From NCBI GenBank assembly GCA_001785445.1, contig MFTV01000010.1:101566-165565 (forward strand): 64,000 nt of DNA, read 5' to 3'. This DNA comes from Candidatus Nomurabacteria bacterium RIFCSPHIGHO2_02_40_30 (lineage in GTDB: Bacteria > Patescibacteriota > Minisyncoccia > Phycocordibacterales > UBA9973). Shown piece by piece: positions 847 through 61,648 of the stretch. The number at the start of each line of letters is the position of its first letter. The stretch's first letter is position 1. The position numbers and the translations under genes are program-made. The notes under the pieces are model-generated. The model ran no database searches. It saw nothing but the letters and a program-made list of their open reading frames with translations, and was not told the origin of the DNA.

Positions 847-3090
847 ATGAAATATATTTTTGCCATTATTGGTAGTGTGGTTGTAGCTGTGAGCTTAGTC
901 GCCCTTGGATTTAATATCAGACAAGTGGATCAAGAAAGAGCTACTTTAACGACCAACTTAGAACAACGAGCTTCTTTGCTTGCCGACAGTTTAAAAGAAT
1001 CTGTTGAGCCTTATTATGCTAATTCTATCCAATCCTCTTTCCAAGCTTCCCTTCAAAAGGTGGTCAATAAATTTGCAAATCGTGAACGCTTAGCTGGCAT
1101 AGCTCTTTATGATAATAAAGGAATACTATTAGCTACTTCTTCAGGACTACCAAAAGCCATAATTGAAAATACAAAAATTGTAGCCGAGGCCATGGACAGC
1201 AACACATCAAATAATGATTTTTTTGATACTGAAGGAGAGGACCGTTACGTGCATGTTGACCCTCTGCACAATGATGAAAGTATAGTTGGGGCACTCATGG
1301 TGGTTCAAAACGCCGGATATATAAATGCAAGAATTGGAGAAATATGGAGAGGAAATTTATTGAGATTACTGATCCAAGTAATAATATTTTCAATAACCAT
1401 TTTCATAATTTTGAGATTTTTTGTTTTTCGTCAAGTTATTCGCTTTGTAGAATCCGTGAAAAAAATTAGAATGGGCGAAGGTAAGGAAAGTTTCAAAGAT
1501 GAAGGTAAATATTCCTTTTTTACCCCGCTTGCAAAAGAAATTACTCATATTACAAAAAGTTTATCACAGGCGCGTTTGTCGGCTCAAGAGGAAGCCCGAA
1601 TGCGTCTGGAAAAACTTGATAGCCCATGGACATCTGAACGTCTTTCGGAATTCATAAAAGCCACTTTAAAAGAGAGACCTATTTTTGTGGTATCTAATCG
1701 TGAACCCTATGAACATTATACTAACTCAAAAGGTGAAGTAAGTTATCGAGTTCCTGCTGGCGGAATTGTCACCGCTATTGAACCAGTGATGGTGGCTTGC
1801 AAAGGTACTTGGATTGCTTGGGGCAGTGGAAATGCAGACAAGACAGTTGTTGATAAAGATAATAAAATTAAAGTTCCTCCCCATGAACCAAAATACACTC
1901 TAAAAAGGGTTTGGCTTTCAGACGAAGAAGTGACTGGTTACTATAATGGATTTTCCAATGAAGCAATGTATCCTCTTTGTCTGATGGCACATACTCGTCC
2001 ACTCTTTAGAAAAGAGAACTGGCAAGAGTACAAAAAAGTAAATGGCATATTTGCAAAAAATGTACTCGCAGAGATAAGAGATGTTCAAAATCCTCTTGTA
2101 TTAATTCAAGACTATCATTTAGCGCTTCTACCACAAATAATAAAGAAAAGTAGACCAGATGCTCAAATTGGAATATTCTGGCATGTGCCTTGGCCAAGTC
2201 CTGAAGCTTTTAGTGTTTGTCCGTGGCGTAAAGAAATATTACAAGGAATGCTGGGTGCTGATATTGTAGGTTTTCATATTCAACAGTTTTGTAATAATTT
2301 TATAAATACTGTCGGCAAGGAAATGGAATCTAGATGTGACCTTGAGCAATTTTCAGTAACATATCAAAATCATACCAGTCATATAAAATCATTTCCGATT
2401 GGTATTGCCTTTACTGGTGGAAATGATGATGTAACATTTGATCCGAATGTCAGTAAAAATCTTTTAGAAAAATTAGGAATACATACTAAACATATTGGCT
2501 TGGGAGTTGATCGTCTAGACTATACAAAAGGGCTTTTAGAAAGGTTTAAAGCCTTGGAATTTTTCTTTGACACCTATCCAACTTACAAAAATAATTTTAC
2601 TTTTTTACAAATAGCATCTCCGAGTAGGGAAAGTGTTCCTAAGTATAAGCAATTTAATGCAGATGTGACAAAAGAAGTTGAACGTATAAATACTAAGTTC
2701 AAAACAAAAAATTGGCAACCCATCGTTCTACTTAAAGAATATCATTCACACGAAGAACTGGATCCATTATTTAAGATTGCCAATGTATGTATGGTAACTT
2801 CACTACATGATGGCATGAACTTGGTAGCTAAGGAATATATCGCCGCCCGAGATAAAGAAGATGGCGTTTTGATTCTAAGTCAATTTGCTGGTGCTGTGCG
2901 AGATCTTAAGGGTGCTTTAATAATAAACCCATACAGCGCAGAAGAAACATCAGAAGCAATAAATACAGCTCTCAATATGGCATTACTAGAACAACAAAGA
3001 CGAATGAAGAAAATGCGTGAATCTATTAAAAATTATAATATTTATCGTTGGTCTGCAGAATTTATCAAAGCAGTTACGAGTCTAAGTTAA
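847..3090 (+). CDS. otsA: trehalose-6-phosphate synthase (GT20) with a ~270-aa N-terminal TM/ectodomain/TM/HAMP-like extension
   Basis: GT20 blocks from about aa 277: FVVSNREPYEH, IGIFWHVPWPS, VGFH, GVDRLDYTKG, SLHDGMNLVAKEY. The N-terminus has two hydrophobic helices. Confidence 0.85.
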   Translation: MKYIFAIIGSVVVAVSLVALGFNIRQVDQERATLTTNLEQRASLLADSLKESVEPYYANSIQSSFQASLQKVVNKFANRERLAGIALYDNKGILLATSSGLPKAIIENTKIVAEAMDSNTSNNDFFDTEGEDRYVHVDPLHNDESIVGALMVVQNAGYINARIGEIWRGNLLRLLIQVIIFSITIFIILRFFVFRQVIRFVESVKKIRMGEGKESFKDEGKYSFFTPLAKEITHITKSLSQARLSAQEEARMRLEKLDSPWTSERLSEFIKATLKERPIFVVSNREPYEHYTNSKGEVSYRVPAGGIVTAIEPVMVACKGTWIAWGSGNADKTVVDKDNKIKVPPHEPKYTLKRVWLSDEEVTGYYNGFSNEAMYPLCLMAHTRPLFRKENWQEYKKVNGIFAKNVLAEIRDVQNPLVLIQDYHLALLPQIIKKSRPDAQIGIFWHVPWPSPEAFSVCPWRKEILQGMLGADIVGFHIQQFCNNFINTVGKEMESRCDLEQFSVTYQNHTSHIKSFPIGIAFTGGNDDVTFDPNVSKNLLEKLGIHTKHIGLGVDRLDYTKGLLERFKALEFFFDTYPTYKNNFTFLQIASPSRESVPKYKQFNADVTKEVERINTKFKTKNWQPIVLLKEYHSHEELDPLFKIANVCMVTSLHDGMNLVAKEYIAARDKEDGVLILSQFAGAVRDLKGALIINPYSAEETSEAINTALNMALLEQQRRMKKMRESIKNYNIYRWSAEFIKAVTSLS

Positions 3091-3093
3091 AAT

Positions 3094-3858
3094 ATGAAAT
3101 ATGTTTTTAAAGATCTTGCAAATATCAAAAAGAAACTACAGGAATCAAATTTTGTCTTGTTGCTTGATTTTGATTTGACACTTTCTCCACTTGCCAAGAA
3201 TCCCGCCAAGGCAATTCTTCCTAACGATACAAGAATTTTATTAAAAAAACTTTCAAAATATATTCATATCGCAGTTATTACTGGCAGGACCATAAAAGAT
3301 ATAAAAAAAAGAATTAAGCTCAACAGCTTAACATACGTAGGTAATCACGGATTGGAATATGAAGTCGGGGGTGTTGCTAGAAGCAGTCAATTATTAGTTG
3401 AATCTAAAAAAGGATTAAAAGATATAAAAAAGAAATTTTTAAATATAAAAAGAAAATATTCTGGTGTACTTATCGAAGACAAGAAACTTGGCCTCGCTTT
3501 ACATTATCGACTACTTTTGTCCCAAGATAAGTTTGCGTTTATGGCGGATATTAAAAAAATCCAAACAGAAATAAAAAATTATGGTCTTCGTGGAATCCTT
3601 TATAAAAGAACCCTAGAGGTAAGACCGGAGACAAAAGAAGACAAAGGCACAGCTTCGCTGCTCATACTTAAAAAATTTGGCAATCCTAAACAAGTAATTT
3701 ATATAGGAGACGGCAAAACAGACGAAGATGCGTTTCGCGCGTTACCTAAAGGTATAACTATCAGGGTAGGAAAATCCAAACATAGTGTTGCTGAATATTA
3801 TGTAAATAGTACGAAAGAAGTAAAAAAATTTCTCGTTTGGCTATTATATATAGTATAA
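3094..3858 (+). CDS. otsB: trehalose-6-phosphate phosphatase (HAD family)
   Basis: DxDxT motif (LLLDFDLTLSP) and IGDGKTDEDAF. Starts 3 nt after otsA. Confidence 0.8.
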   Translation: MKYVFKDLANIKKKLQESNFVLLLDFDLTLSPLAKNPAKAILPNDTRILLKKLSKYIHIAVITGRTIKDIKKRIKLNSLTYVGNHGLEYEVGGVARSSQLLVESKKGLKDIKKKFLNIKRKYSGVLIEDKKLGLALHYRLLLSQDKFAFMADIKKIQTEIKNYGLRGILYKRTLEVRPETKEDKGTASLLILKKFGNPKQVIYIGDGKTDEDAFRALPKGITIRVGKSKHSVAEYYVNSTKEVKKFLVWLLYIV

Positions 3859-12301: not shown

Positions 12302-13168
12302 TTATATTAATTTAATCTCACCCATTTCTTCCTTAATTAATTCTTTTATTTCCATTACAGATAGGATGGCGTTGGCGGTCGGAGTTGGGAATTTCATTGC
12401 TCTGATTAAATCATCTCTTCCCATAGGTTCACGAAGCAAGTCCACCACCTTTTTTTCTTCCGGCGATAAATCTAAAAATAATTTTGCTTGCTTTTCTTCA
12501 TCTTTTGGTTTTTCAAAACCCAGAGCTTCCAAAACATCTTCCGCGCAGGTTACGGGAGTTGCGCCTTGGTGCAATAATTTATTCGTGCCTTTGGAGTTGG
12601 GAGAAAATATTGAACCTGGAACCACTAATAAATCACGATTGTATTCTGTGGTGAGCCTTGCAGTAATAAGGGTGCCGGATCTTTCTTCCGCCTCTATTAT
12701 TAACGTTGCTTTTGAAATGCCGGCCATCAACCTGTTTCTCATGGGGAAGCTCCATTGGGTAGCTTTGAAAGTAGGTTCAAATTCTGATATTAAACATCCA
12801 CCATTTCCTACAATTTCTTCCATAAGTCTTACATTTGTTTTAGGGTACATTGCTTCAGCGGATAGCCCGGAACCTGGGAATACTAAAGTTTTTAACCCTA
12901 CCTGCATTGCCTTTTTGTGGGCGATAGTATCTATGCCCATAGCAAAACCGGAAACGACGGCTATAGGATAACCCTTTAATCCCGCAATTATTTTCTCGCA
13001 AGCTTCCCTGCCGTACGAAGTAAATTTACGCGAACCAACAACGCATAAATATATTAAATTCTCGGTAGGTAGCTCACCGATAATCCAGAGGTCGGCTGGA
13101 GGTTGAGGTATCTCCAAGAGTGCTTTTGGAAACTTATTTTTAGCCAACTTTTTGATTTCCACATACAA
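12302..13168 (-). CDS. dprA: DNA processing protein DprA/Smf
   Basis: Rossmann-like DprA core (VVSGFAMGIDTIAHK, EERSGTLITA) with a C-terminal winged-helix-like tail. The track start is a TTG codon. Confidence 0.85.
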   Translation of the reverse strand: MYVEIKKLAKNKFPKALLEIPQPPADLWIIGELPTENLIYLCVVGSRKFTSYGREACEKIIAGLKGYPIAVVSGFAMGIDTIAHKKAMQVGLKTLVFPGSGLSAEAMYPKTNVRLMEEIVGNGGCLISEFEPTFKATQWSFPMRNRLMAGISKATLIIEAEERSGTLITARLTTEYNRDLLVVPGSIFSPNSKGTNKLLHQGATPVTCAEDVLEALGFEKPKDEEKQAKLFLDLSPEEKKVVDLLREPMGRDDLIRAMKFPTPTANAILSVMEIKELIKEEMGEIKLI

Positions 13169-24257: not shown

Positions 24258-25484
24258 ATGTATTCTAAAAAACTGGTTGAAAATATAGAAAATGAATTGG
24301 AGGCTTTGAAAGGAGCTGGGAAGTTCAAGGTAGAAAGAGAACTTGAAGGAGCGCAAGGTGCAGAAGTAAATATTGCTGGTAAGAAGGTTTTAATGTTCGC
24401 CTCAAATAATTATTTGGGTTTAGCGAATCATCCAGAAATTATAAAAGCCAGCAAGGAAGCTGTGGACAAATACGGCTTTGGTCTTTCTTCGGTTAGATTT
24501 ATCGCTGGCACAGAAACAATACACAAGACTTTGGAAAAAAAGTTAGCAGAATTTTTAGGTACAGAAGATGCCATTCTTTACTCTACGAACTTTATGGCCA
24601 ATTTAGGATTTTTTGCCACCATGACCAATGAAGCTTTCGGTGACGAGACGAGCCATCTAGATGCAATCTATAGTGACGAACTGAATCATGCCAGCATCAT
24701 TGACGCTTTCAAGCTTTGTAAAAAAGAAAATGTAGTAAAGAGAATTTATCCGCACGGTGATATTCCAACGCTCGAGCAAATGCTAGAAGAAGACAAGAGC
24801 AAGAATTACAGATTTAAAATAATCGTAACTGACGGAGTTTTCTCAATGGAAGGGTATTTAGCGAATTTACCGGAAATAAAAAAGCTTGCAGAAAAATATG
24901 AGGCACTGCTTTTCGTAGATGATGCTCATGCAGTAGGAGTACTTGGCAAAACTGGGGCTGGCACACCGGAGTATTACGATTTGCATGGCAAAATTGATAT
25001 TCTGTCAGGAACTTTCGGCAAAGCGCTCGGCGGAGCAATTGGCGGATATATTGCCGGTAAGGCTGAAATAGTAGAACTACTTCGCCAGAAATCTCGTACT
25101 TATCTTTTCTCAAACTCTTTACCTCCTTCTGTAGTCATGGCATCAATTAAAGCGTTAGACTTATTAAAAGAAGAGCTGGAACTTTTAAATAAAGTTATAG
25201 AAAATTCAGAATACTTTAGAGAGGAAGTAAAAAAGTTAGGCTTCAATGTTTTGGAAGGCAACCACCCTATAGTCCCTGTGATGCTAAGTGACGCAGGGCT
25301 GACACAGAAAGTGAGTAGAAAGTTATTAGATAATGGACTTTATGTGGTGGGGCTTTGGTTTCCAGTTGTGCCGGAAGGTGCCGCCCGACTACGCTTTCAA
25401 ATCTCTGCTGCGCACACAAAAGGACAAATCGACCAAGCCATAGAGATAATGCGAGAGGTTGGCAAAGAAATGAAAATAATATAA
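24258..25484 (+). CDS. kbl: 2-amino-3-ketobutyrate CoA ligase (glycine C-acetyltransferase)
   Basis: Alpha-oxoamine synthase pattern: NNYLGL, DDAHAVG, and SGTFGKALGG with the PLP-binding Lys. Confidence 0.85.
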   Translation: MYSKKLVENIENELEALKGAGKFKVERELEGAQGAEVNIAGKKVLMFASNNYLGLANHPEIIKASKEAVDKYGFGLSSVRFIAGTETIHKTLEKKLAEFLGTEDAILYSTNFMANLGFFATMTNEAFGDETSHLDAIYSDELNHASIIDAFKLCKKENVVKRIYPHGDIPTLEQMLEEDKSKNYRFKIIVTDGVFSMEGYLANLPEIKKLAEKYEALLFVDDAHAVGVLGKTGAGTPEYYDLHGKIDILSGTFGKALGGAIGGYIAGKAEIVELLRQKSRTYLFSNSLPPSVVMASIKALDLLKEELELLNKVIENSEYFREEVKKLGFNVLEGNHPIVPVMLSDAGLTQKVSRKLLDNGLYVVGLWFPVVPEGAARLRFQISAAHTKGQIDQAIEIMREVGKEMKII

Positions 25485-25495
25485 AGTGTATTTAT

Positions 25496-28429
25496 ATGAT
25501 TTCACGGATATATGTAATGCCTAAAGATAAGGGTACACGGGCAGATTCTTACCTTATTGACTCTAAATTGTCCTTAAAAGAACTCACGAAGCTGGCTAAT
25601 GCCCTTACGAATCCGATTCTAGAAAAATATTATATAAATGAACCCCTGAAAGTGGGGAATTTTTCTTATGCGATTGAAATAGGTTATAAACCGGGAGTAA
25701 CGGATAACGTAAGTCACACTGTTAAAGAAATTGCTACAGATTTACTTAACTTGAAAAAGCACACGGACTTTCAAGTATATACTTCCAAGATTCTTTTCAC
25801 TTCCGGCAATAAAGAAAGGACAGAAAAATTTGCTCTTGAATTGTATAATCCGCTTATTGAGCGAGCCAATATAGCGCAGATTAAAAACGGAAAAATAAAT
25901 TTTCCCAATAAAGCTCCAAAGGTAATTCTTGAAAAAAGAAAACTGGTTGTAAAAGTTCCGCTTAATGTTTCCGATGAAGAACTTATAAAGATAGGAACTT
26001 TGGGAATCAAAGAAGGGAATATTCGGCGCGGGCCGCTGGCGCTCGACTTAGCTTCAATGCACGCCATAAAAGAATACTTTGCCAAACTAAAAAGAACACC
26101 AACGGACATTGAGCTTGAAGCTTTGGCGCAGACATGGTCGGAACACTGCAAGCACACTATTTTTGCGAATCAGATAGATGATATACAAGAAGGGCTATAC
26201 AAGACTTATATAAAAGGAGCGACAAATCTTATCCGTAAACAAAAAAGAGAGAGAGGTCAGCAGGATTTTTGCGTTTCTGTTTTTTCTGATAATTCCGGTG
26301 GAATAATTTTTGACAAAGATTTCTTAATAACCCACAAAGTTGAAACACACAACTCTCCTTCTTTCTTAGATCCGTTTGGAGGAGCTATTACCGGCATTGT
26401 GGGAGTGAATCGCGACACGATAGGCTTCGGGCTGGGGGCTAAGCCAGTGGCTAATACTTACGGATTTTGTTTTGGCGAACCGGACGAAAAAAGGCATCTA
26501 TATTTAGATAAAGAACAAAAGCAAAAAATGCTCCTGCCAAAACGAATCATGGATGGTGTGATAAAAGGCATAAACGTTGGGGGGAACTGCTCTGGTATTC
26601 CGACTATTTCCGGATTTGTAAAATTTGACGAAAGATACAGAGGTAGGCCACTTGTGTTCGCCGGAACAGTAGGATTGATACCGAAAAAAATTGGAGCAAG
26701 ACTTTCTCATGAAAAAAAGGCAAAACCTAGGGACTGTGTCGTAATCATTGGGGGTAGAACAGGAGCAGATGGTATCCATGGAGCCACATTTTCTTCTGTT
26801 GCCACAGATTTTAATTCACCGGCCACGGCAGTGCAAATTGGTGACCCGATAACCCAGAAAAAGTTAAGTGATGCAATAATAAAAGAAGCCCGAGATATGA
26901 ATTTATATAACAGCATCACGGACATCGGTGGCGGTGGAATGTCTTCTTCGGTAGCAGAAATGGCTAAAGAGTCCGGCGGGGTTAAAGTTGATTTGGAAAA
27001 AGTTCCGCTAAAATATCCGGGGCTTCGGCCGTGGGAAATATGGATTTCAGAATCACAGGAACGCATGACTCTCGCTGTGCCGAAGAATAAAATAAAAAAA
27101 CTTTTCAAACTTTTGGAAAGTCGTGAAGTGGAAGCTACGGTAGTGGGAGAATTTACCAATTCCGGCAAGTGTGTGCTCTATTACAAAGGTAAAAAAATAA
27201 TGGACATGGACATGGAGTTCTTACATAACGGACTACCAAAGCATCATTTAAGAACCTCACCCCCGCCCGCGTTAGCAGACCTCCCCCTCTCCTTGGCAAG
27301 GAGAGGGGCTAGAGGTGAGGTATACACAAAAGATCTTGAGAATTTACTTGGAAGTAAAAATCTAAATGGATTTTCTTTCATCTCCGAACAATATGACCAC
27401 GAAGTGCAGGGATCATCTGTGCTAAAACCTCTTTCGGGTCCGGGACGTATCAACACTGACGCCCAAGTTTTCCGTCCAGTTTTAAATTCAAACAAAGGAG
27501 TTGTATTGTCATCTGCACTTTATCCTTCGTATGGAGACATCAGCACCTACGACATGGCTGCTTGTGCGCTTGACACTACTGTTCGAAACGCAGTTGCTTC
27601 TGGCGGCACTCTTTCTCACCTCGCTATATTAGACAACTTCTGTTGGTGCTCTTCGTATGACAAAACACGGCTATATCAGCTCGTAGAAGCTGTAAAAGCC
27701 TGTTATGACTACGCTGTGGGCTATGGCACCCCATTTATTTCTGGCAAGGACAGTATGTTTAATGATTTTAAGGGTTATGACGAGAAGGGTAATCCTGTGG
27801 CCATTTCTATCCCTCCGACGCTTCTAATATCTGCCATAGGGGTAGTGTCGGACTTTTATAAAGTTGTTTCGCCGGAATTCAAAAATGCGGGAGATATAAT
27901 ATATTTGCTAGGAGAAACTCATGATGAACTTGGAGCAAGTGAATACTATAAGATGCTTGGAGAAATTGAAAATAACCCCGCACCAGAGCAAGCTCGGTAC
28001 GGGGCAAGTGTTCCGAAAGTTAACTTAGAAAAAAATCTAAAAACATATCTGGCGCTGGAAAAAGCGATTCAAAAAGAATTGTTGAATTCTTCTCTTTCTG
28101 TAACTTCCGGAGGCTTCGGAATTGCATTGGCAAAAGCCTGTGTTGGCGGAATGCTCGGATGTAAAATAAATGTAGAAAGCATGTCTGCGGGCTCAAATTC
28201 GGCCATGGTGAAGCTTTTCTCTGAAAGCCAAGGGAGGGTATTGGTATCCGTACCTCCTAAAAATACAAGGGAATTTGAAAAAATATTTAAGGATATATCG
28301 AATGCCAGGCTCGGAACAGTTTCCAAAGACAACAAATTTATAATAACAGAAGATAATAAAAAAATAGTGGATTCGTCCGTAAAAAAGCTGTACGACATTT
28401 ATCATAAGTTTTCCAATTCAATGCAATGA
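25496..28429 (+). CDS. purL: phosphoribosylformylglycinamidine synthase, synthetase subunit with a fused PurS-like N-terminal domain (977 aa)
   Basis: Start trimmed to MISRIYV. Contains WSEHCKHTIF, ETHNSPS and the DxGGGG pattern. The ~190-aa N-terminus has LTNPILEKY and LYNPLIERA PurS-like repeats. Confidence 0.9.
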   Translation: MISRIYVMPKDKGTRADSYLIDSKLSLKELTKLANALTNPILEKYYINEPLKVGNFSYAIEIGYKPGVTDNVSHTVKEIATDLLNLKKHTDFQVYTSKILFTSGNKERTEKFALELYNPLIERANIAQIKNGKINFPNKAPKVILEKRKLVVKVPLNVSDEELIKIGTLGIKEGNIRRGPLALDLASMHAIKEYFAKLKRTPTDIELEALAQTWSEHCKHTIFANQIDDIQEGLYKTYIKGATNLIRKQKRERGQQDFCVSVFSDNSGGIIFDKDFLITHKVETHNSPSFLDPFGGAITGIVGVNRDTIGFGLGAKPVANTYGFCFGEPDEKRHLYLDKEQKQKMLLPKRIMDGVIKGINVGGNCSGIPTISGFVKFDERYRGRPLVFAGTVGLIPKKIGARLSHEKKAKPRDCVVIIGGRTGADGIHGATFSSVATDFNSPATAVQIGDPITQKKLSDAIIKEARDMNLYNSITDIGGGGMSSSVAEMAKESGGVKVDLEKVPLKYPGLRPWEIWISESQERMTLAVPKNKIKKLFKLLESREVEATVVGEFTNSGKCVLYYKGKKIMDMDMEFLHNGLPKHHLRTSPPPALADLPLSLARRGARGEVYTKDLENLLGSKNLNGFSFISEQYDHEVQGSSVLKPLSGPGRINTDAQVFRPVLNSNKGVVLSSALYPSYGDISTYDMAACALDTTVRNAVASGGTLSHLAILDNFCWCSSYDKTRLYQLVEAVKACYDYAVGYGTPFISGKDSMFNDFKGYDEKGNPVAISIPPTLLISAIGVVSDFYKVVSPEFKNAGDIIYLLGETHDELGASEYYKMLGEIENNPAPEQARYGASVPKVNLEKNLKTYLALEKAIQKELLNSSLSVTSGGFGIALAKACVGGMLGCKINVESMSAGSNSAMVKLFSESQGRVLVSVPPKNTREFEKIFKDISNARLGTVSKDNKFIITEDNKKIVDSSVKKLYDIYHKFSNSMQ
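27254..27321. repeat. GC-rich nested palindrome embedded in frame in purL
   Basis: Inner stem CCCCTCTCCTT/AAGGAGAGGGG (11 bp, 3-nt loop) and outer stem ACCTCAC/GTGAGGT. 45 of 68 nt are G+C. Confidence 0.85.
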
Positions 28430-35214: not shown

Positions 35215-35281
35215 AATGTATATTATGTATATTAACATAAAATTTGAGTAAGGCAATTATTGTGCTAATATGGTTTATTAT

Positions 35282-36778
35282 ATGAAAAAGAAAATCACTT
35301 CAGCGTTGATTTCAGTTTTCAGCAAAGATGGACTTGAAGATATTGTAAAGCTCCTTTCTAAACACGGAGTAAAGATTATTTCTACAGGTGGTACTGCCGA
35401 ATTTATACGTAAACATAATATATCCGTGACTGAGGTAGAAACTATTGCCAAATTTCCGGCAATTTTTGGTGGCAGAGTTAAAACACTTCAACCGCAAATT
35501 TTTGGTGGCATTTTAAATAGGAGAGACAACAAAGAAGACCAGAAGGAAAAAGCTGAACATAAAATAGAAGACATAGACTTAGTAATTGTAGATTTGTATC
35601 CATTTGAGGAAACACTTGCAAGTGGTGCGAATGAAGAAAACATTATTGAAAAAATTGATATAGGAGGAATATCTCTTATTCGCGCGGCAGCTAAAAACTT
35701 TAATGATGTAGTTGTAATATCATCAAAACATCAATACCAAGAGCTAACTAATATATTGAACTTAGGAAATGAAACAAGTCTGGAAGAACGCAGAAAGTTT
35801 GCCGGTGCTGGGTTTGAAGTAACAAGCAAATATGATGCTGCGATAAGAGGATATTTCCAAGGCACATCACTGCGTTATGGAGAGAATCCACATCAAAAAG
35901 CGGAGTTTGTGGGGAACTTGGAAGAAAGTTTTACCCAACTTCACGGAAAAGAACTTTCTTATAATAATCTCATAGACACAGAAGCTGCAATTTTGACGGT
36001 GACTGATTTCCAAAAGCCTGCTTTCGCTATTATCAAACACATGAATGCTTGTGGCCTTGCTGTCAGGGAAGAAGGGGAATTATTTGAAGCTTATAAGGCC
36101 GCCTATGATGCAGACCCTGTCTCAGCATTTGGTGGCATACTCGCGGCCAACAGAACTATTACTGAAGACATCGCCAAACTTATCAAAGAAGTTAAACTTT
36201 TTATCGAAGTAATAATTGCTCCAGACTTTTCGAAAGAAGCTCTAGCTATATTAATGGAGAAAAAAGATTGCCGAATTTTAAAATGGAATAATCCAAACCT
36301 GCCAACAAAACAAAATCGTACTTGCTTTACCGGAATTTTGTCGCAAGACCGAGATACACACGTGGAAACAGGAGAGGACTTAACAGTAGTGACGAAACGC
36401 GCGCCGGACGAAAGAGAAAGAAAAGATTTATTAATTGCCGCAGTGACTACAAAACATTTAAAATCAAATTCTGTTGCGTTGGTGAAAGATGGCACGCTTC
36501 TTGCTATGGGTTGTGGGCAAACTTCGCGCATTGATGCCTTAAAGCAGGCAATAGATAAAGCCCAAAGAATACAGCAATTTGGATTCTCACTTCAAGGTGC
36601 AGTGCTCTCTTCGGAAGCATTCTTTCCATTTCCTGATTGTGTAGAATTGGCTGCTAAAGTGGGAGTTACTGCCGTAATTCAGCCAGGAGGCTCGAAAAAC
36701 GACCAAGCATCCATAGACATGGCTGACAAATATAATCTGGCAATGGCAACAACTGGGTTTAGACATTTCAAACATTAA
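35282..36778 (+). CDS. purH: bifunctional AICAR transformylase / IMP cyclohydrolase
   Basis: ALISVFSKDGL, GGTAEFI and VKTLQPQIFGGIL. The start could also be the ATG at 35270. Confidence 0.9.
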   Translation: MKKKITSALISVFSKDGLEDIVKLLSKHGVKIISTGGTAEFIRKHNISVTEVETIAKFPAIFGGRVKTLQPQIFGGILNRRDNKEDQKEKAEHKIEDIDLVIVDLYPFEETLASGANEENIIEKIDIGGISLIRAAAKNFNDVVVISSKHQYQELTNILNLGNETSLEERRKFAGAGFEVTSKYDAAIRGYFQGTSLRYGENPHQKAEFVGNLEESFTQLHGKELSYNNLIDTEAAILTVTDFQKPAFAIIKHMNACGLAVREEGELFEAYKAAYDADPVSAFGGILAANRTITEDIAKLIKEVKLFIEVIIAPDFSKEALAILMEKKDCRILKWNNPNLPTKQNRTCFTGILSQDRDTHVETGEDLTVVTKRAPDERERKDLLIAAVTTKHLKSNSVALVKDGTLLAMGCGQTSRIDALKQAIDKAQRIQQFGFSLQGAVLSSEAFFPFPDCVELAAKVGVTAVIQPGGSKNDQASIDMADKYNLAMATTGFRHFKH

Positions 36779-37342: not shown

Positions 37343-38464
37343 ATGACGAACAAAAAAAATGAATACGCAAAGGCGGGTGTAGATTATACTGTCATGGAGC
37401 CATTTAAGATGGCGATGATTGAAGCCGGTAAAAAAACACTAAAATTCCCCAATAAAAGGGGAGTCTTTATAAATAAAGATGCAACACATGCCCATGGCGC
37501 AGTATTTGAATATCGTGGTAAAGAGCCACATATTTGGTGCCAAACACAGGAAGATCTAGGAAATAAAAACTGGATTGCCGAATGGATGTATCAAAAAACT
37601 GGCAAATCTTATTACGAATCCATAGCTATCGACACAGCACTGATTGTGGTAAATGACGTCATAGCCCAGGGCGCTATGCCGGTGGTTTTCACAGATCAAC
37701 TGGAAGCAAGTAGAAGCGATTGGTATAAAGATAAAAAACGAGCGCAAGATTTCGCAAATGGTTTTCTAAAAATCTGCCGTGAAGTAGGCATGGCTCTGCC
37801 GGCAGGAGAATCTGCCAGCGTAACTTATATAATAAATCCAAAAGCTCCGGTTAAAGAAATAGTCAGCTTGAGCGGTTCAGTCATCGGAATAGTGACGCCT
37901 AAAGAAAATTTAATTACTGGTCAAGATTTGACTGTCGGTGACCATATTATCGGCGTAGCTTCTTCGGGACTTCACGCCAACGGAATTAGCTTAGTTATTA
38001 AAAAAGCACTCGAACTCCCCAAACAATTTTTAACAAAGCTCCCGAATGGCAAGACTCTGGGCGAAGAAGCGCTTATTCCTACCCGCTCATACGTAGCTCT
38101 GATTGAAGCCTTGCTTAAAAATAAAATAAAAATTCACGCTCTACTCCCAGGGACAGGGGATGGAGTAGGTAAAATTGCTTTTGATAAGAGACCATTTACT
38201 TACAGAATTCATTCTTGGCTTAGTATTCCGCCTTTGTTTAAATTTTTTCATGAACAGTTAAAAATTTCGCTTGAGAATTGTCTGAAAACTTTCAATTGGG
38301 GAGTAGGGTATTACATTTTTGCCCCAAAAGAAGAAGTTGCTAAAATACTAAAAATCGGTGAAGATAAGGGGTACGTAATGGCGGACGTGGGTATTGTAGA
38401 AAAGGGCAAGCGACAAGTTATTTTCGAACCGGAAAAAATTATTCTGATGCCGCCGGGGAAATAA
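37343..38464 (+). CDS. purM: divergent phosphoribosylformylglycinamidine cyclo-ligase (AIR synthetase)
   Basis: Collinear with PurM: YAKAGVDY, IAIDTALIVVNDVIAQGA, GDHIIGVASSGLHANGISLV, TFNWGVGYYI. The DGVGTK loop reads QEDLGNK instead. Confidence 0.75.
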   Translation: MTNKKNEYAKAGVDYTVMEPFKMAMIEAGKKTLKFPNKRGVFINKDATHAHGAVFEYRGKEPHIWCQTQEDLGNKNWIAEWMYQKTGKSYYESIAIDTALIVVNDVIAQGAMPVVFTDQLEASRSDWYKDKKRAQDFANGFLKICREVGMALPAGESASVTYIINPKAPVKEIVSLSGSVIGIVTPKENLITGQDLTVGDHIIGVASSGLHANGISLVIKKALELPKQFLTKLPNGKTLGEEALIPTRSYVALIEALLKNKIKIHALLPGTGDGVGKIAFDKRPFTYRIHSWLSIPPLFKFFHEQLKISLENCLKTFNWGVGYYIFAPKEEVAKILKIGEDKGYVMADVGIVEKGKRQVIFEPEKIILMPPGK

Positions 38465-38537: not shown

Positions 38538-39470
38538 ATGAATATACTAAAAGAAACAAATTTTAACAACTTGGGGAAAAAATATACTGGTAAAGTTAGA
38601 GATGTTTATATCCAGAATGACAAAATTATAATGGTTTCCACTGACAGATATTCCGCTTTTGACCGCAATCTGGCGCTCATTCCTTGTAAGGGACAAGTTT
38701 TAACTCAAGTTACTGATTTTTGGTTTAATCAAACTAAAGATATAGTACAAAATCACGTTATTGAAATACCAGACCCAAATACAGTAGTAGCTAAAAAATG
38801 CACCGTGTTGCCAGTGGAGATGGTAGTGCGCGGCTACATTACCGGAGTTACTGGAACTTCCACTTGGACTCTATACCAAAAGGGGCAGAGAGACTTCGGG
38901 GATTTTGTTTTGCCTGACGGAATGAAAAAAAATCAAAAACTGGATAAACCGGTCATAACTCCTACGACGAAACACGAAGCTCACGACAGGCCCTTGACTA
39001 GCAAAATTATTTTAGAAGAAAAAATGATGTCACCGGAGATTTGGCAAAAAATTTCTGATATCTCTTTGAAGCTTTTCGCCCGCGGGCAGGAAGTTGCCTT
39101 AAATAGGGGACTGATTCTGGTAGACACTAAATACGAATTTGGTTTAGATAAAAATAACGAGATAATGCTGATAGACGAGATTCATACGCCGGACTCTTCT
39201 AGGTACTGGCAGGCGGACTCATATAAAGGTAGAATTGAGCAAGGTTTAGAGCCAGAAAATTTTGATAAGGAGTTTCTGCGCTTGTGGTTTAAAGATAACT
39301 GCGACCCGTATAAAGATGAAAAACTTCCAGAAGCGCCAGTGGGGATGGTGACTGAACTTTCCCGAAGATATGTAAAAATTTGCGAGCAAATTACTGGAAT
39401 TCCTTTTCAAATGGAAAATGGAGACATCGGGAAGAGGATAGAGGATAATCTAAAAAAATACGCAATATAA
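38538..39470 (+). CDS. purC: SAICAR synthetase (long form)
   Basis: YTGKVRDVY and LILVDTKYEFG. Confidence 0.9.
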   Translation: MNILKETNFNNLGKKYTGKVRDVYIQNDKIIMVSTDRYSAFDRNLALIPCKGQVLTQVTDFWFNQTKDIVQNHVIEIPDPNTVVAKKCTVLPVEMVVRGYITGVTGTSTWTLYQKGQRDFGDFVLPDGMKKNQKLDKPVITPTTKHEAHDRPLTSKIILEEKMMSPEIWQKISDISLKLFARGQEVALNRGLILVDTKYEFGLDKNNEIMLIDEIHTPDSSRYWQADSYKGRIEQGLEPENFDKEFLRLWFKDNCDPYKDEKLPEAPVGMVTELSRRYVKICEQITGIPFQMENGDIGKRIEDNLKKYAI

Positions 39471-39483
39471 AATTACTGATAAT

Positions 39484-40842
39484 ATGTCACTAAATTCAAT
39501 TTCACCAATAGACGGACGCTATGAAAAACAGACTTCTATTTTGTCTCCTTTTTTTAGCGAGAAAGCATTAATGCAGTATAGAGTAATTGTGGAAGGTGAG
39601 TACTTTATTGCCCTTTCGTTATTAAGAAAAACATCTTTGAGGAAATTTAGCAACACAGAGATAAAAAAAGTCAGAAGTTTATACAGGCTTTCTTCTAAAG
39701 ACTTCGAGCATATAAAAAATATCGAACAAAAAACAAATCATGATGTAAAAGCAGTGGAGTACTTTTTAAAAGAAAAACTGGCCAAAACATCCCTTAAAAA
39801 AAGCGTGGAATGGATTCACTTTGGTTTGACGTCCTATGATATTAACACTGTTGCCCGGGGGATGATGCTCGGTGACGCTTTGGAAAAAGTTATTATTCCA
39901 AAAATCATCTTGTTAACAAAAAACATCAATACTATCTCTAAAAAATACAAAGCTTTGCCCATGCTCTCGCGCACCCATGGCCAGAGCGCTTCGCCCACCA
40001 CCTTCGGCAAAGAAATGAAAGTTTTTGAGCAAAGATTAAAAAAACAAACTGACATACTGGAGTTTGTAAGGATATCAGTAAAGTTTAGCGGCGCTACCGG
40101 CAACTTTAATGCACATCATGTAGCTTACCCGAAAGTTGACTGGATTAAATTCGCCAAAAGTTTTATAAACAGTTTAAATAAAAATAGAAAAATCAAACTG
40201 GAGTTAAATTTGCCGACAACCCAGATAGACCCGCATGACAGGGAAATAGAAATTTTTGATTGTTTGCGCAGAATCAATACTATTCTAATAGATTTTAATC
40301 AGGATATTTGGCATTATATTAGCGACGAATGGCTGGTGCAAAAAGTTATCAAAGGCGAAGTAGGCTCTTCCGCTATGCCGCACAAAGTTAACCCCATCAA
40401 TTTCGAAAACAGTGAAGGTAATTTAGGTTTGGCGAATGCTCTTCTTAATTTCTTTTCTAATAAACTGCCAATTTCTCGTCTGCAAAGAGATTTGTCAGAC
40501 TCTACCGTAGAGCGAAACTTCGGTTCAGCTTTGGCTTACTCTTTAATAGCATATGAAAATTTGTTAAAAGGCCTTTCAAAAATTGATGTTAATAAACATA
40601 AAATGGCTAAAGACTTAGACAATCACCCAGAAGTAATTACCGAGGCTATGCAAACGATACTTCGGCGCGAAGGTGTAGCCATGCCGTATGAAAAATTAAA
40701 AGAATTGACTCGTGGTAAAAACATAACAATGGGTGATATTCATAAATTTATTGATACTTTGAAAGTGAGTATTGAGGTAAAAAAAGAGTTAAAAAAAATT
40801 ACTCCTGCGAACTACATAGGTTTAGCTTCAAAACTGGTATAA
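39484..40842 (+). CDS. purB: adenylosuccinate lyase
   Basis: SPIDGRY and the fumarate-lyase signature GSSAMPHKVNP. Confidence 0.9.
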   Translation: MSLNSISPIDGRYEKQTSILSPFFSEKALMQYRVIVEGEYFIALSLLRKTSLRKFSNTEIKKVRSLYRLSSKDFEHIKNIEQKTNHDVKAVEYFLKEKLAKTSLKKSVEWIHFGLTSYDINTVARGMMLGDALEKVIIPKIILLTKNINTISKKYKALPMLSRTHGQSASPTTFGKEMKVFEQRLKKQTDILEFVRISVKFSGATGNFNAHHVAYPKVDWIKFAKSFINSLNKNRKIKLELNLPTTQIDPHDREIEIFDCLRRINTILIDFNQDIWHYISDEWLVQKVIKGEVGSSAMPHKVNPINFENSEGNLGLANALLNFFSNKLPISRLQRDLSDSTVERNFGSALAYSLIAYENLLKGLSKIDVNKHKMAKDLDNHPEVITEAMQTILRREGVAMPYEKLKELTRGKNITMGDIHKFIDTLKVSIEVKKELKKITPANYIGLASKLV

Positions 40843-41943: not shown

Positions 41944-43674
41944 ATGATAAGAAAAATGTTCAAAAAAAAGAATAGTGACAAACACTTTTTCGTGGAGCCC
42001 GACGAGATTTTTCTTGACTCAAAAAATTTGCAAAATTTTGACCGTCAGCAATTCGAGGGACGAATAGAAAAATCAATACCTAAAAAGAACATTTTATTTC
42101 TTGGGATTTTATTCCTGCTTTTTTCTGTAACATTTGGCAGCCGTCTGATATATCTGCAAATCCAAAAAGGGGAAGCGTACTTGAAAAGAAGCGAAAATAA
42201 TATTTTAGACAAAGTTATTATCTTTACCGAGAGAGGAATAATCTATGACAGAAATAATGTAAAGCTGGCTTGGAACAGTAGAAATTCGGACGTTGGACGT
42301 CTGAATTCCGGACGTCCAACGTCCGAATCTGAAAACATGCCTATTCGCACATACATGTCACCCGGATTTTCTCATGTATTGGGTTACGTTAGTTACCCAG
42401 CCAAAGACAAGGACGGCAACTATTGGCAAACTGAATTTATGGGTAAAGACGGCTTAGAAAAAGAATACAACGACAAAATCAAAGGAGAAAATGGCTCAAA
42501 AATAATAGAAATAAATGCGTTAAAAGAAATAAATTCCGAAAATATCATAAACATTCCAAAACGAGGGAATAACTTGGTTACAAGTATTGACTCAAAAATT
42601 CAGAAAGAATTGTTTACTTTAATTAAAAATCTGGCAGAAAATAATAACTTTACCGGTGGAGCTGGGATAATAATGGATGTCAGAAATGGAGAAATACTGA
42701 CTTCTACCAGCTTCCCAGAATATAATTCCGAAACTTTATCTCTTGGAGAAGATATATCAGCGATCAATAAGTATATAAACGATAAAAGAAAATTCTTTAT
42801 GGATAGAACTGTTTCCGGACTTTATACTCCAGGCTCGATCGTTAAGCCATTTTTCGCGCTTGGAGCTCTAACTGAAGGCATTATTGACCAATATAAAAAA
42901 ATTCTTTCGACTGGTTCCATCTCAATCCCAAACCCTTATTTTAAAGACCAAAAGACTGTTTTCAAAGACTGGAGAGTAAACGGCTGGACAGATATGAGGG
43001 AGGCTTTGGCTGTTTCTTCTGATGTTTACTTTTACTCTATTGGCGGGGGCTACGGCGACCAAAGAGGCCTTGGTATAACCAATATTGGCAAGTATGCCAG
43101 CCTCTTCGGCATTGGAGAAGCAACTGGGATTGATTTGCCGGACGAAAAAAAGGGCACCATCCCGTCTCCGCAATGGAAAATAGAAAATTTTCAAGGAGAC
43201 CCTTGGCGCATTGGAGACACTTATCATACGGCTATCGGACAATATGGATTCCAAGTTACTCCGGTAGAAATAGTCCGCGCCGTAGCGGCTATAGCAAGTT
43301 ATGGCAAAATGTTAACTCCGCATTTTATACTCAATGACAAAGAAAAGGAAAATAAAACTTCTACAGTCAACTTAAAAAAAGAATACTTTGACATTGTGCG
43401 TGAAGGAATGAGAAAAGCAGTGACAACGGGCACGGCGACAATACTGAATGTGCCCTATGTGCATGTCGCTGTGAAAACCGGAACAGCAGAGCTCGGAGTG
43501 GCTAAAAATAAAGTGAACTCTTGGGTGATGGGCTTCTTGCCGTACGAAGACCCTAAGTACGCTTTCGTGATTATTATGGAGTCGGGCCCCTCGACCGGCG
43601 GCGCTAATGCGTCTTCTGTCATGCGAGGTCTCTTGGACTGGATGTACCTTAACACACCGGAATATTTCGATTAA
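41944..43674 (+). CDS. mrdA: penicillin-binding protein 2 (class B transpeptidase)
   Basis: N-terminal anchor, SxxK (GSIVKPF), SSD(VYF) and KTGTA. Confidence 0.85.
   Translation: MIRKMFKKKNSDKHFFVEPDEIFLDSKNLQNFDRQQFEGRIEKSIPKKNILFLGILFLLFSVTFGSRLIYLQIQKGEAYLKRSENNILDKVIIFTERGIIYDRNNVKLAWNSRNSDVGRLNSGRPTSESENMPIRTYMSPGFSHVLGYVSYPAKDKDGNYWQTEFMGKDGLEKEYNDKIKGENGSKIIEINALKEINSENIINIPKRGNNLVTSIDSKIQKELFTLIKNLAENNNFTGGAGIIMDVRNGEILTSTSFPEYNSETLSLGEDISAINKYINDKRKFFMDRTVSGLYTPGSIVKPFFALGALTEGIIDQYKKILSTGSISIPNPYFKDQKTVFKDWRVNGWTDMREALAVSSDVYFYSIGGGYGDQRGLGITNIGKYASLFGIGEATGIDLPDEKKGTIPSPQWKIENFQGDPWRIGDTYHTAIGQYGFQVTPVEIVRAVAAIASYGKMLTPHFILNDKEKENKTSTVNLKKEYFDIVREGMRKAVTTGTATILNVPYVHVAVKTGTAELGVAKNKVNSWVMGFLPYEDPKYAFVIIMESGPSTGGANASSVMRGLLDWMYLNTPEYFD
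42284..42328. repeat. perfect 18-bp inverted repeat (9-nt loop) embedded in frame in mrdA
   Basis: ATTCGGACGTTGGACGTC-tgaattccg-GACGTCCAACGTCCGAAT. The GGACGT unit occurs four times. Confidence 0.9.
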
Positions 43675-61420: not shown

Positions 61421-61448
61421 TTGACAGGTTTAGATAAAAGCATAAACT
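61421..61448 (+). promoter_or_regulatory. promoter for the riboswitch-led operon
   Basis: TTGACA-N16-TAAACT. Confidence 0.55.
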
Positions 61449-61469
61449 TAGTATGTTCCTTTAATAATT

Positions 61470-61648
61470 TAAAAGAAGTGATTGGGGAAACTGGTTAGAT
61501 TCCAGTACAGTGCCGCTACGGTAAGCCCACGACTTTGTGTCGGGGACAAGTCCGATTACCAATCATTTTTGTTTTTCCCGAGCAGGATATCCTCTTTCGT
61601 TTTTTTACGAAAAAGACTGTAAATTCTGCCCGCAGCAGGATTTTTTTT
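61470..61648 (+). promoter_or_regulatory. cobalamin riboswitch (aptamer plus SD-sequestering / terminator-like hairpin)
   Basis: P1 stem TGATTGG/CCAATCA. Core GGGAAACTGGTTAGATTCCAGTACAGTGCCGCTACGGTAAG. B12-box-like AAGTCCGATTACC. Hairpin AATTCTG/CAGGATT, then T8 directly before the ATG. Confidence 0.7.

Follow-up and report, generated by a model that had tools for sequence, protein, structure and literature searches.

The DNA analysed here, hereafter the window, is a stretch of 64,000 nucleotides from Candidatus Nomurabacteria bacterium RIFCSPHIGHO2_02_40_30 (assembly GCA_001785445.1, contig MFTV01000010.1, positions 101,566 to 165,565), and coordinates refer to this stretch unless a locus is named. 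On its forward strand, an open reading frame (ORF) at 41944-43674 encodes a class B penicillin-binding protein 2 (PBP2, MrdA-like) of 576 amino acids (aa), in which Pfam recognises a Transpeptidase domain (residues 240-563) and a PBP_dimer domain (residues 130-196). As an initial annotation of the window had claimed, this gene carries a palindrome of 45 bp in frame, at 42284-42328. Here we describe the palindrome, the dispersed family of REP (repetitive extragenic palindromic) sequences to which it belongs, and the putative REP-associated tyrosine transposase (RAYT) genes that members of this family accompany. Related loci and proteins in other genomes and metagenomes are designated by L and P numbers, respectively.

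The two arms of the palindrome, ATTCGGACGTTGGACGTC (42284-42301) and GACGTCCAACGTCCGAAT (42311-42328), form a perfect 18+18 bp inverted repeat around the 9-nt spacer TGAATTCCG. An inverted repeat of this length was said to be improbable by chance in coding DNA, and this was upheld in two ways. In 200 random sequences (first-order Markov, 64 kb, same composition, loops of 3-20 nt) the longest perfect inverted repeat had a mode of 10 and a maximum of 15, compared with the 18 observed in the window. Folded as single-stranded DNA (ssDNA), the region 42284-42328 reached -24.2 kcal/mol (z = -7.6), and none of 200 dinucleotide shuffles was as stable. In the predicted fold a G·T pair and a G-C pair lengthen the stem to 20 bp and leave a loop of 5 nt. 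Rfam and tRNA scans of the window gave no match at the palindrome site.

The arm and separator sequences of the initial annotation were exact, with one small correction as to internal organisation: the separator is not a free loop. Instead, two REP units of 17 nt span most of the element. The left unit, CGGACGT-TGG-ACGTCTG (42287-42303, forward strand), contains one G·T pair, and the right unit, CGGACGT-CCA-ACGTCCG (42309-42325, forward strand), lies in inverted orientation; both were located by regular-expression match. They are joined by the spacer AATTC (42304-42308), which forms the apical loop of the long hairpin. When folded with its TT/AA flanks (21 nt), each unit pairs into a stem of 9 bp closed by a loop of 3 nt (left unit, -6.0 kcal/mol, z = -3.5; right unit, -9.2 kcal/mol, z = -4.2). 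Both arms therefore show the short GC-rich palindrome and stable ssDNA hairpin of a REP unit, and the whole has the doublet architecture of a REPIN (two REPs that fold into one hairpin), in which each arm makes its own mini-hairpin and both arms together make a long one (-24 kcal/mol). The element is a near-complete palindrome of two 17-nt REP units and not a stem with a free loop. Its full extent, 42284-42328, follows from the 18-bp arms, the ssDNA fold and comparison with the dispersed family, and has no strand of its own.

The insert is not peculiar to one assembly. An independent ENA assembly and GCA_001786145.1 both contain a 132-nt segment of the loop, and the whole PBP2 gene, without any difference. 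The assembly collection lists the protein in 134 of its blocks, and a protein of Candidatus Nomurabacteria bacterium RIFCSPLOWO2_02_40_28 is 100% identical to it. All full-length members of the 90% cluster of this PBP2 contain the insert. A shorter member lacking it was sought, and the candidate, P0125 (560 aa), proved to be merely truncated at its N terminus, with the insert retained.

Within PBP2, the 45 bp amount to 15 codons placed within a Thr codon (A|CT) and are read in frame as N-SDVGRLNSGRPTSE-S. With the two split codons, the element occupies codons 114-129 of the ORF (42283-42330, forward strand), which read N-S-D-V-G-R-L-N-S-G-R-P-T-S-E-S; one tryptic peptide expected from PBP2 is LNSGRPTSESENMPIR. 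By direct reading, excision of 42284-42328 rejoins A|CT as Thr and yields WNSR-TE-NMPIRTY, in agreement with the insert-free orthologue pattern WNKKTE…. A shift of the excision by one base gives RSE or RNE, and several boundaries are compatible with the comparison.

The insert lies in the N-terminal, non-catalytic region of PBP2, in a loop between WN(K/S)(K/R) and xRxYxSPGFSH. An alignment of 120 orthologues (69-74% identity) shows that this loop ranges in length from about 6 to more than 30 residues and that approximately half of the orthologues have no extra residues in it; 71 orthologous metagenome loci are likewise variable at the DNA level. The description of the site as a variable loop of the non-catalytic head was therefore correct. 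The inserted residues, had they been conserved in distant orthologues without the palindrome, would have refuted the initial annotation; in fact the insert is absent from most orthologues. The alignment to PBP2 chains of the PDB breaks between query residues 113 and 142, and the AF2 model places residues 112-134 in a low-confidence coil between two strands, with an overall predicted local distance difference test (pLDDT) score of only 56. The site is thus likely to be a surface loop, as far as the model can tell.

Other lineages also carry palindromes in this loop. REP-doublet-like palindromes of a different sequence, TGGGAGC-YGA-GCTCCCA, are present in the same PBP2 loop of L017 and L035 and differ from each other by a compensated change. 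The loop of L069 holds a further palindrome, whose arms are not clear mini-hairpins, and decayed palindrome remnants are seen in the loop of L002, L005 and L009. Repeated occupation could reflect permissiveness alone, recurrent insertion, or replacement of a resident palindrome by the current subtype. Across related lineages, PBP2 and further ORFs carry perfect GC-rich palindromes of 40-44 bp as in-frame inserts (L017 3686-3725, L035 4574-4613 and 5613-5656, L069 10308-10349, L065 4665-4706), with two in the PBP2 of L035. Those at L035 5613, in L065 and in L069 share the ends and centre ACTTGG…CC-ACTT-GG…CCAAGT around unrelated interiors.

The suspicion of the initial annotation that such hairpins form a class of elements invading coding sequence was supported by a search for related hairpins. 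The pattern ACGTTGGACGTC-N(1-30)-GACGTCCAACGT was scanned against one genome per species (GTDB representatives), and 85 stretches matched this doublet core, with copies at non-homologous sites and mostly inside ORFs. Nearly all of the metagenome-assembled genomes (MAGs) that matched are Patescibacteria, labelled Paceibacterota, Nomurabacteria, 'Saccharibacteria' or unclassified, and four related MAGs contain 9-14 perfect doublets apiece. Three further copies were found at non-homologous sites of metagenomic PBP2 loci, one in L009 and two in L014. Six matches were left out of the statistics as probably unrelated: L101, L119, L139 and L142, from MAGs outside the candidate phyla radiation (CPR), and the GC-rich loci L081 and L108, the former labelled Patescibacteria. 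A scan of viral contigs for the doublet returned zero matches and hence no sign of a phage vector.

Two subtypes make up the family. The A type reads ttCGG-ACGTTGGACGTC-…-GACGTCCAACGT-CCGaa and includes the copy in the window, the B type reads ctCCAG-…-CTGGag, and the subtype is genome-specific. Complementarity between the arms reaches about 7 nt past the 12-nt core; farther out it is no better than random. This sets the length of the element at approximately 45-48 bp, in agreement with the palindrome of the window. The arms covary at variable positions (94% complementary at offset 2 against 51% expected, and 74% at offset 4 against 32% expected), and sequence variants such as GACGTCGGACGTC/GACGTCCGACGTC remain complementary. 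In most copies 9 or 12 nt separate the two 12-nt cores, and this spacer is in many cases partly palindromic itself. The ends of 86 copies showed no evident direct repeat, and their flanks were unrelated beyond offset 7.

A sequence resembling a DnaA box accompanies part of the family. The nonamer (TTATCCACA/TGTGGATAA, at most one mismatch) occurs near or in the spacer of 17 of the 57 B-type copies (30%), at a distance of at most 35 nt, compared with none of 28 A-type copies and 3.7% of random windows. It is also found 8-10 nt beyond REPs that flank RAYT genes; sites lie in L114 (about 1010-1030), L126 (about 3050-3110 and 2150-2230), L163 (about 3870) and L173 (about 4890 and 5700).

Most copies of the family are located inside genes. 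Among the CPR copies, 58 of 88 (66%) fall within stretches that run for at least 150 aa without a stop, as against 86.5% of random points in the same loci, so that coding sequence is depleted of elements relative to chance even though most copies are coding; the census demanded perfect 12-nt cores in both arms, which introduces an ascertainment bias into this coding fraction and into the apparent perfection of the copies. Ten host ORFs were verified by Pfam, namely two TopA, GuaA, GatB, PurH, DnaG, RecJ, RNase J, a Mur ligase and an amidase (GatA-like). The frame used in the window is shared by 42 of the 58 coding copies, which encode [S/T/P]-DVGR-x3-[G/R]RPTS-x. Since by direct reading the A-type consensus is stop-free in all three frames, this bias points to selection on the encoded peptide or to an insertion preference. 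Spacer length as a multiple of 3 was also considered as a coding signature, and coding and non-coding copies did not differ in it (72% and 65%, respectively; p = 0.59).

The same genes have been hit at the same or at different sites in different species. In TopA, site 1 is filled in L088, L092 and L144, while L105 is filled elsewhere and empty at site 1; site 1 is occupied by A-type copies in two genomes of A type and by a B-type copy in a genome whose copies are all B. Here too, as in the PBP2 loop, repeated insertion or replacement by the current subtype could be at work. In PurH, L107 and L121 share one site and L106 uses another, and GuaA, GatB and DnaG show similar patterns of same or different loops between species. 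The filled and empty versions of TopA and PurH lie in loops that are otherwise variable, and with their divergence a duplication of 1-3 bp or a palindromic (TA/AATT-like) one may have escaped notice. The TopA genes of L088 and L092 carry further GC-rich inserts near residues 230-260 (…LPALPGGREQAG… and …SHHPALKGTPPQAGG…), which are absent from L144 and L105 and are probably other palindromic elements.

A candidate enzyme for the family came from related genomes. Queries for tBLASTn were approximate sequences of IS200, IS608 and an E. coli RAYT, and all matches had E > 0.2; a weak match in L058 nevertheless led to a CPR RAYT gene directly downstream of PBP2. Five loci that had been collected solely for the palindrome, and the PBP2 locus L015, proved to contain homologues of about 220 aa. 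The L058 gene (11885-12607), from a Nomurabacteria lineage, is more canonical, with HUH and YIHLNPV motifs, and is flanked by a palindrome of its own, GCGGAAGACSGTCTTCCGC, once upstream and twice downstream (12614-12667).

These genes are physically linked to REPs. The RAYT genes of L094, L114, L126 and L163 are preceded and/or followed by B-type REPs or doublets; in L094, CAGACGTCCAACGTCTG lies 22 nt before the ATG and an inverted unit 10 nt past the stop codon, and in L126 doublets are present on both sides of the gene. Additional loci (L168, L170, L171, L173/L174, L175 and L177) were identified by the RAYT protein alone and are thus unbiased as to DNA motif. Three of these RAYT genes are flanked by lineage-specific REPs, TAGACGTCCAACGTCTA in L170, TCGGGTGTTGGACACCCGA in L168 and CCAGGTATCCGATACCTGG in L171. 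The RAYT genes of L173/L174, L175 and L177 (P0208, P0281 and P0195) are flanked by TTCGGACGTCCAACGTCCGAA, which is the exact right arm of the window copy and of A type. The RAYTs of L015, L058, L168, L170 and L171 carry REP variants of their own. Around the L175 gene, seven A-type REP units lie within 6.7 kb, and about 10 kb away, on the same 307-kb contig, is a PurH gene with an in-frame A-type doublet; L175 overlaps L107 with 100% identity over 859 bp.

Sequence and structural models support assignment of the approximately 220-aa gene to the Y1/HUH REP-associated tyrosine transposases. H81-F82-H83 and Y141 are invariant among 32 homologues. The sole NCBIfam match of the CPR RAYTs was REP_Tyr_transpos (E from 4e-7 to 1.7e-10). 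The database contains 1562 homologues at E <= 1e-40, many of which are named 'REP element-mobilizing transposase RayT' or assigned to PF01797. For the AlphaFold model of the protein, the closest structure found by Foldseek was that of the E. coli REP-associated tyrosine transposase in complex with a REP hairpin (4er8_A; E 2.3e-4, probability 1.0), and the TnpA proteins of IS608, ISDra2 and IS200 came next. In four of the six RAYT lineages that were fetched, the gene shares a neighbourhood of PG_binding_1 genes, RAYT, a gene of about 212 aa and a large surface protein with immunoglobulin-like domains, and then rplJ, present in three of them. L175, L177 and L058 have a different context. RAYTs are reported to behave as vertically inherited, housekeeping-like genes (PMC5581495).

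The RAYT ORF itself contains a REP unit in frame in four lineages (L173 5182-5198, L168 5182-5198, L175 3171-3209 and L177 3195-3239). The position is the same in all four, the sequence is lineage-specific, and 10-14 nt of extra complementary flank bring the stems to 18-21 bp in L175 and L177. The unit maps to a low-confidence loop of the RAYT model (residues 44-65). It could serve self-regulation or could be merely another tolerated insertion.

Together the results lead us to conclude, with high though not full confidence, that the 45-bp palindrome in PBP2 is a non-autonomous mobile element of the REP/REPIN type, associated with RAYT and inserted in frame in a variable loop of the host protein. 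The element family is native to the Paceibacterota/Nomurabacteria within the Patescibacteria. Of eight REPIN features that were tested, five were found: the REP forms a hairpin, the doublet is inverted, there are multiple copies, a RAYT gene is flanked by the REP in related genomes, and the enzyme has the Y1 fold with its motifs. On this ground we regard the element as REPIN-like.

By analogy with characterised RAYTs, the enzyme would recognise REP hairpins on ssDNA, and by cutting and rejoining them it could copy REP doublets to new sites with no obvious target-site duplication. In gene-dense genomes with scant intergenic DNA most landing sites would be coding, and selection would retain those copies that comprise a whole number of codons, lack stops and fall in tolerant surface loops. 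The copy in the window would be such a survivor, adding to the hypervariable PBP2 loop a hydrophilic extension of 15 residues that is presumably translated and nearly neutral. The doublet is predicted to fold into the 20-bp hairpin in ssDNA or RNA. Mobilisation by RAYT is thus what we infer from the characterised enzymes, and in the genome of the window an active RAYT may still be present or the copy may be a fossil.

Several observations weigh against this reading. The Y1-transposase genes that the initial annotation had suggested checking for do exist in related genomes, flanked by exactly this REP, but the 64-kb window holds neither a RAYT homologue nor the syntenic neighbours of RAYT, and none of the database RAYT matches could be assigned to the organism of the window. 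Nor does the 14-mer GGACGTTGGACGTC occur a second time in the 64-kb window, with up to 3 mismatches allowed. No target-site duplication, transposition intermediate or clean recent empty site was found among the copies compared. By direct reading, none of 94 copies has a GTAG tag, the flanks being TTCGG, TCCAG or TACAG. Extragenic location, a feature of REPINs, is not the rule here: most copies are intragenic and that of the window lies inside PBP2. To these are added the ascertainment bias of the census described above and the limits of the enzyme's assignment: the CPR RAYTs fall under the curated cut-offs of NCBIfam NF047646 (80 bits) and Pfam PF01797, a sequence profile built from the CPR RAYT alignment matched no chain of the PDB, and the model is of moderate quality (pLDDT 70, with template-modelling scores of 0.49-0.62 in the fold matches).

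Comparison with known systems places the element close to REPINs. The definitions of REPINs and RAYTs, and earlier reports of intragenic REPs and Rickettsia palindromic elements (RPEs), are consistent with it (PMC3116915, PMC5581495, PMC3733652). Like REPINs, it consists of two short GC-rich inverted REP hairpins with a variable spacer that together form a long hairpin with compensatory stem variation; it is multicopy, the cognate Y1/HUH gene is flanked by the same REP, and the REP variants are specific to RAYT lineages. It differs in size, with a REP of 17 nt and a doublet of about 45 bp as opposed to about 70-110 bp, in the lack of a 5' GTAG tag, in that approximately two thirds of its copies are intragenic, in its host phylum, Patescibacteria, and in the presence of a REP unit inside the RAYT ORF. 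The enzyme also differs, at about 220 aa compared with 165 residues for the 4er8 chain and 146 positions for the NCBIfam model.

The RPEs offer a second parallel, as they are described in the papers that cite them (Ogata et al. 2000, 2002 and Claverie & Ogata 2003, cited in PMC6649704 and PMC10969869), where they appear as elements of about 100-150 bp that encode 30-50 aa and are restricted to Rickettsia. On that description, both are in-frame palindromes of reduced genomes, where many unrelated housekeeping genes carry them, both leave the gene intact and add a peptide segment, and both have hit the same genes at different sites. The present element is set apart by its length (45 bp, 15 aa) and its Patescibacteria hosts, and in addition it is linked to RAYT. 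For RPE-4/6 and for the CGTC REPs no dedicated transposase is known (Di Nocera 2013, PMC3733652).

Intragenic REPs are already known in kind. Singlets and dimers have been reported inside genes of several species, Opitutus terrae, R. conorii and Thauera among them. A dimer there encodes 20-30 aa, many copies lie in genes for replication and repair, and no Patescibacteria were reported in that survey (PMC3733652). Those hosts resemble the TopA, DnaG and RecJ hosts described here. In contrast, the GTAG and CGTC REPs are mostly intergenic and have terminal tags, 8-9-bp stems and 4-5-nt loops (PMC3733652), whereas the CPR REP has a 7-9-bp stem and a TGG/CCA loop and is untagged. A search of the full-text literature yielded no description of such elements in CPR/Patescibacteria, which is not proof of novelty.

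The IS200/IS605 elements share the principle of the enzyme. Their Y1/HUH transposases recognise hairpins on ssDNA and insert without target-site duplication. However, these elements have two unlike subterminal hairpins and insert 3' of a specific tetra- or pentanucleotide, whereas here a symmetric doublet is the entire element, the transposase gene is separate and no target motif was identified. A further likeness is found in the coding palindromes of nematomorph mitochondria, which are also perfect inverted repeats with both arms translated; they differ in that they reach 284 bp, are gene-specific, are attributed to template switching and belong to no dispersed family with a transposase (PMC6649704).

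Four other explanations of the palindrome were weighed. A hairpin with a function specific to the gene, acting in the PBP2 mRNA or DNA through, for example, translational pausing, cleavage by RNase III or other processing, attenuation or the binding of a protein that regulates mrdA, appears improbable to us. The fold is very stable, a relative with 90% identity (P0002) has an identical peptide, and different stable hairpins occupy the same loop elsewhere, with the compensatory difference between L017 and L035. Nevertheless, the identical sequence is present in dozens of unrelated genes and in intergenic DNA, most PBP2 orthologues are without any hairpin, L002, L005 and L009 hold only the decayed remnants, and the hairpins of the loop come from unrelated sequence families, each with REP-doublet architecture. 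Secondary exaptation of the PBP2 hairpin is possible.

It is also quite unlikely that the encoded peptide is what has been selected, with DVGR-x3-GRPTS acting as a protease, modification or interaction site and the palindrome a by-product. That 42 of 58 coding copies encode the same peptide when all three A-type frames are free of stops, and that the hosts are essential enzymes, would agree with such a module. However, non-coding copies and copies in other frames make up about a third of the total, what is conserved is the nucleotide sequence, third positions and both arms included, the second half of the peptide is the reverse-complement reading of the first, and the elements flank a transposase gene. 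A frame bias is, moreover, expected from purifying selection on tolerable peptides.

A local mutational origin, by template switching, fold-back priming or repair of a hairpin-capped break, we hold to be very unlikely. Template switching can create and perfect palindromes, as has been discussed for nematomorph mitochondria (PMC6649704), and the lack of a visible target-site duplication would fit. The hairpin-mediated insertion scar that the initial annotation offered as an alternative belongs here, and it failed because neither arm derives from neighbouring sequence or resembles the flanking PBP2 sequence or the insert-free orthologues. Furthermore, many genomes contain the same cores of 12-17 nt, at numerous non-homologous loci and beside RAYT genes, and these dispersed identical copies effectively refute a local origin. 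Template switching may still help to keep the arms perfect after insertion.

Finally, a chimeric or erroneous insertion in assembly or binning, conceivable because the genome is a MAG and palindromes can stem from library or assembly errors, is excluded for practical purposes by the identical gene in independent assemblies of different projects, the protein's occurrence in 134 blocks, the cluster-wide insert with its preserved frame and the presence of the family in many independent MAGs.

Two sequence classes were also considered and rejected. In the attC sites of integrons, an imperfect palindrome has an inverse core, RYYYAAC, as its 5' end and a core, GTTRRRY, as its 3' end. GTTGGAC and GTCCAAC are both present in the element, but their order is reversed on both strands, and no integron context was seen. 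A DNA-uptake sequence was set aside, as uptake sequences accumulate by substitution rather than by insertion of 45 bp.

The window contains other features of related kind. The initial annotation had pointed to a second in-frame palindrome, at 27254-27321, as a related phenomenon, and this proved to be a member of another dispersed palindrome family, …cctcacccc(a)acc-CCTCTCCTTGCCAAGGAGAGG-gg…ggggtgagg, which occurs also in L039, L095, L117, L155, L156 and L162. Its host ORF (25355-28429) encodes PurL, with AIRS, AIRS_C and FGAR-AT linker domains in Pfam, and belongs to a purine cluster with PurH (35270-36778), a PurM-like protein (37343-38464), PurC (38538-39470) and PurB (39484-40842). The PurH of the window is without the REP doublets found in PurH of L106, L107 and L121. 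An intergenic hairpin, ATGTTTnGGGT…ACCCnAAACAT, at 46363-46395 is conserved in L007 (4863), L013 (14550), L069 (14381), L020 (4697) and L023 (8739) and may be an operator or a terminator. A cobalamin riboswitch lies at 61437-61581.

The odd GC-rich hairpin in an essential cell-wall gene is thus explained as part of a genome-wide population of REP doublets. To our knowledge, REPINs are considered to be extragenic elements, and for the RPEs of Rickettsia, which alone are well known as in-frame palindromes, there is no known transposase. The family described here unites the two properties, being mostly intragenic and in frame and at the same time linked to RAYT. Such inserts make CPR housekeeping proteins look more divergent than they are and serve as lineage markers, and they may break assemblies, since many RAYT homologues are on short contigs. 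The family also provides a testable system for the dispersal of palindromes by hairpin-specific Y1 enzymes and for their tolerance in compact genomes. More tentatively, and with somewhat less than even confidence, we propose that REPIN-RAYT systems in the Paceibacterota/Nomurabacteria may have shifted from extragenic space to mainly essential genes, where they would be translated as short hydrophilic loops. A domesticated Y1 transposase would then act as a recurrent, lineage-specific generator of loop insertions in core enzymes, among them PBP2, TopA, PurH, GuaA, GatB and DnaG, some loops would be repeated sites of landing or replacement, and RAYT might regulate itself through the REP in its own ORF.

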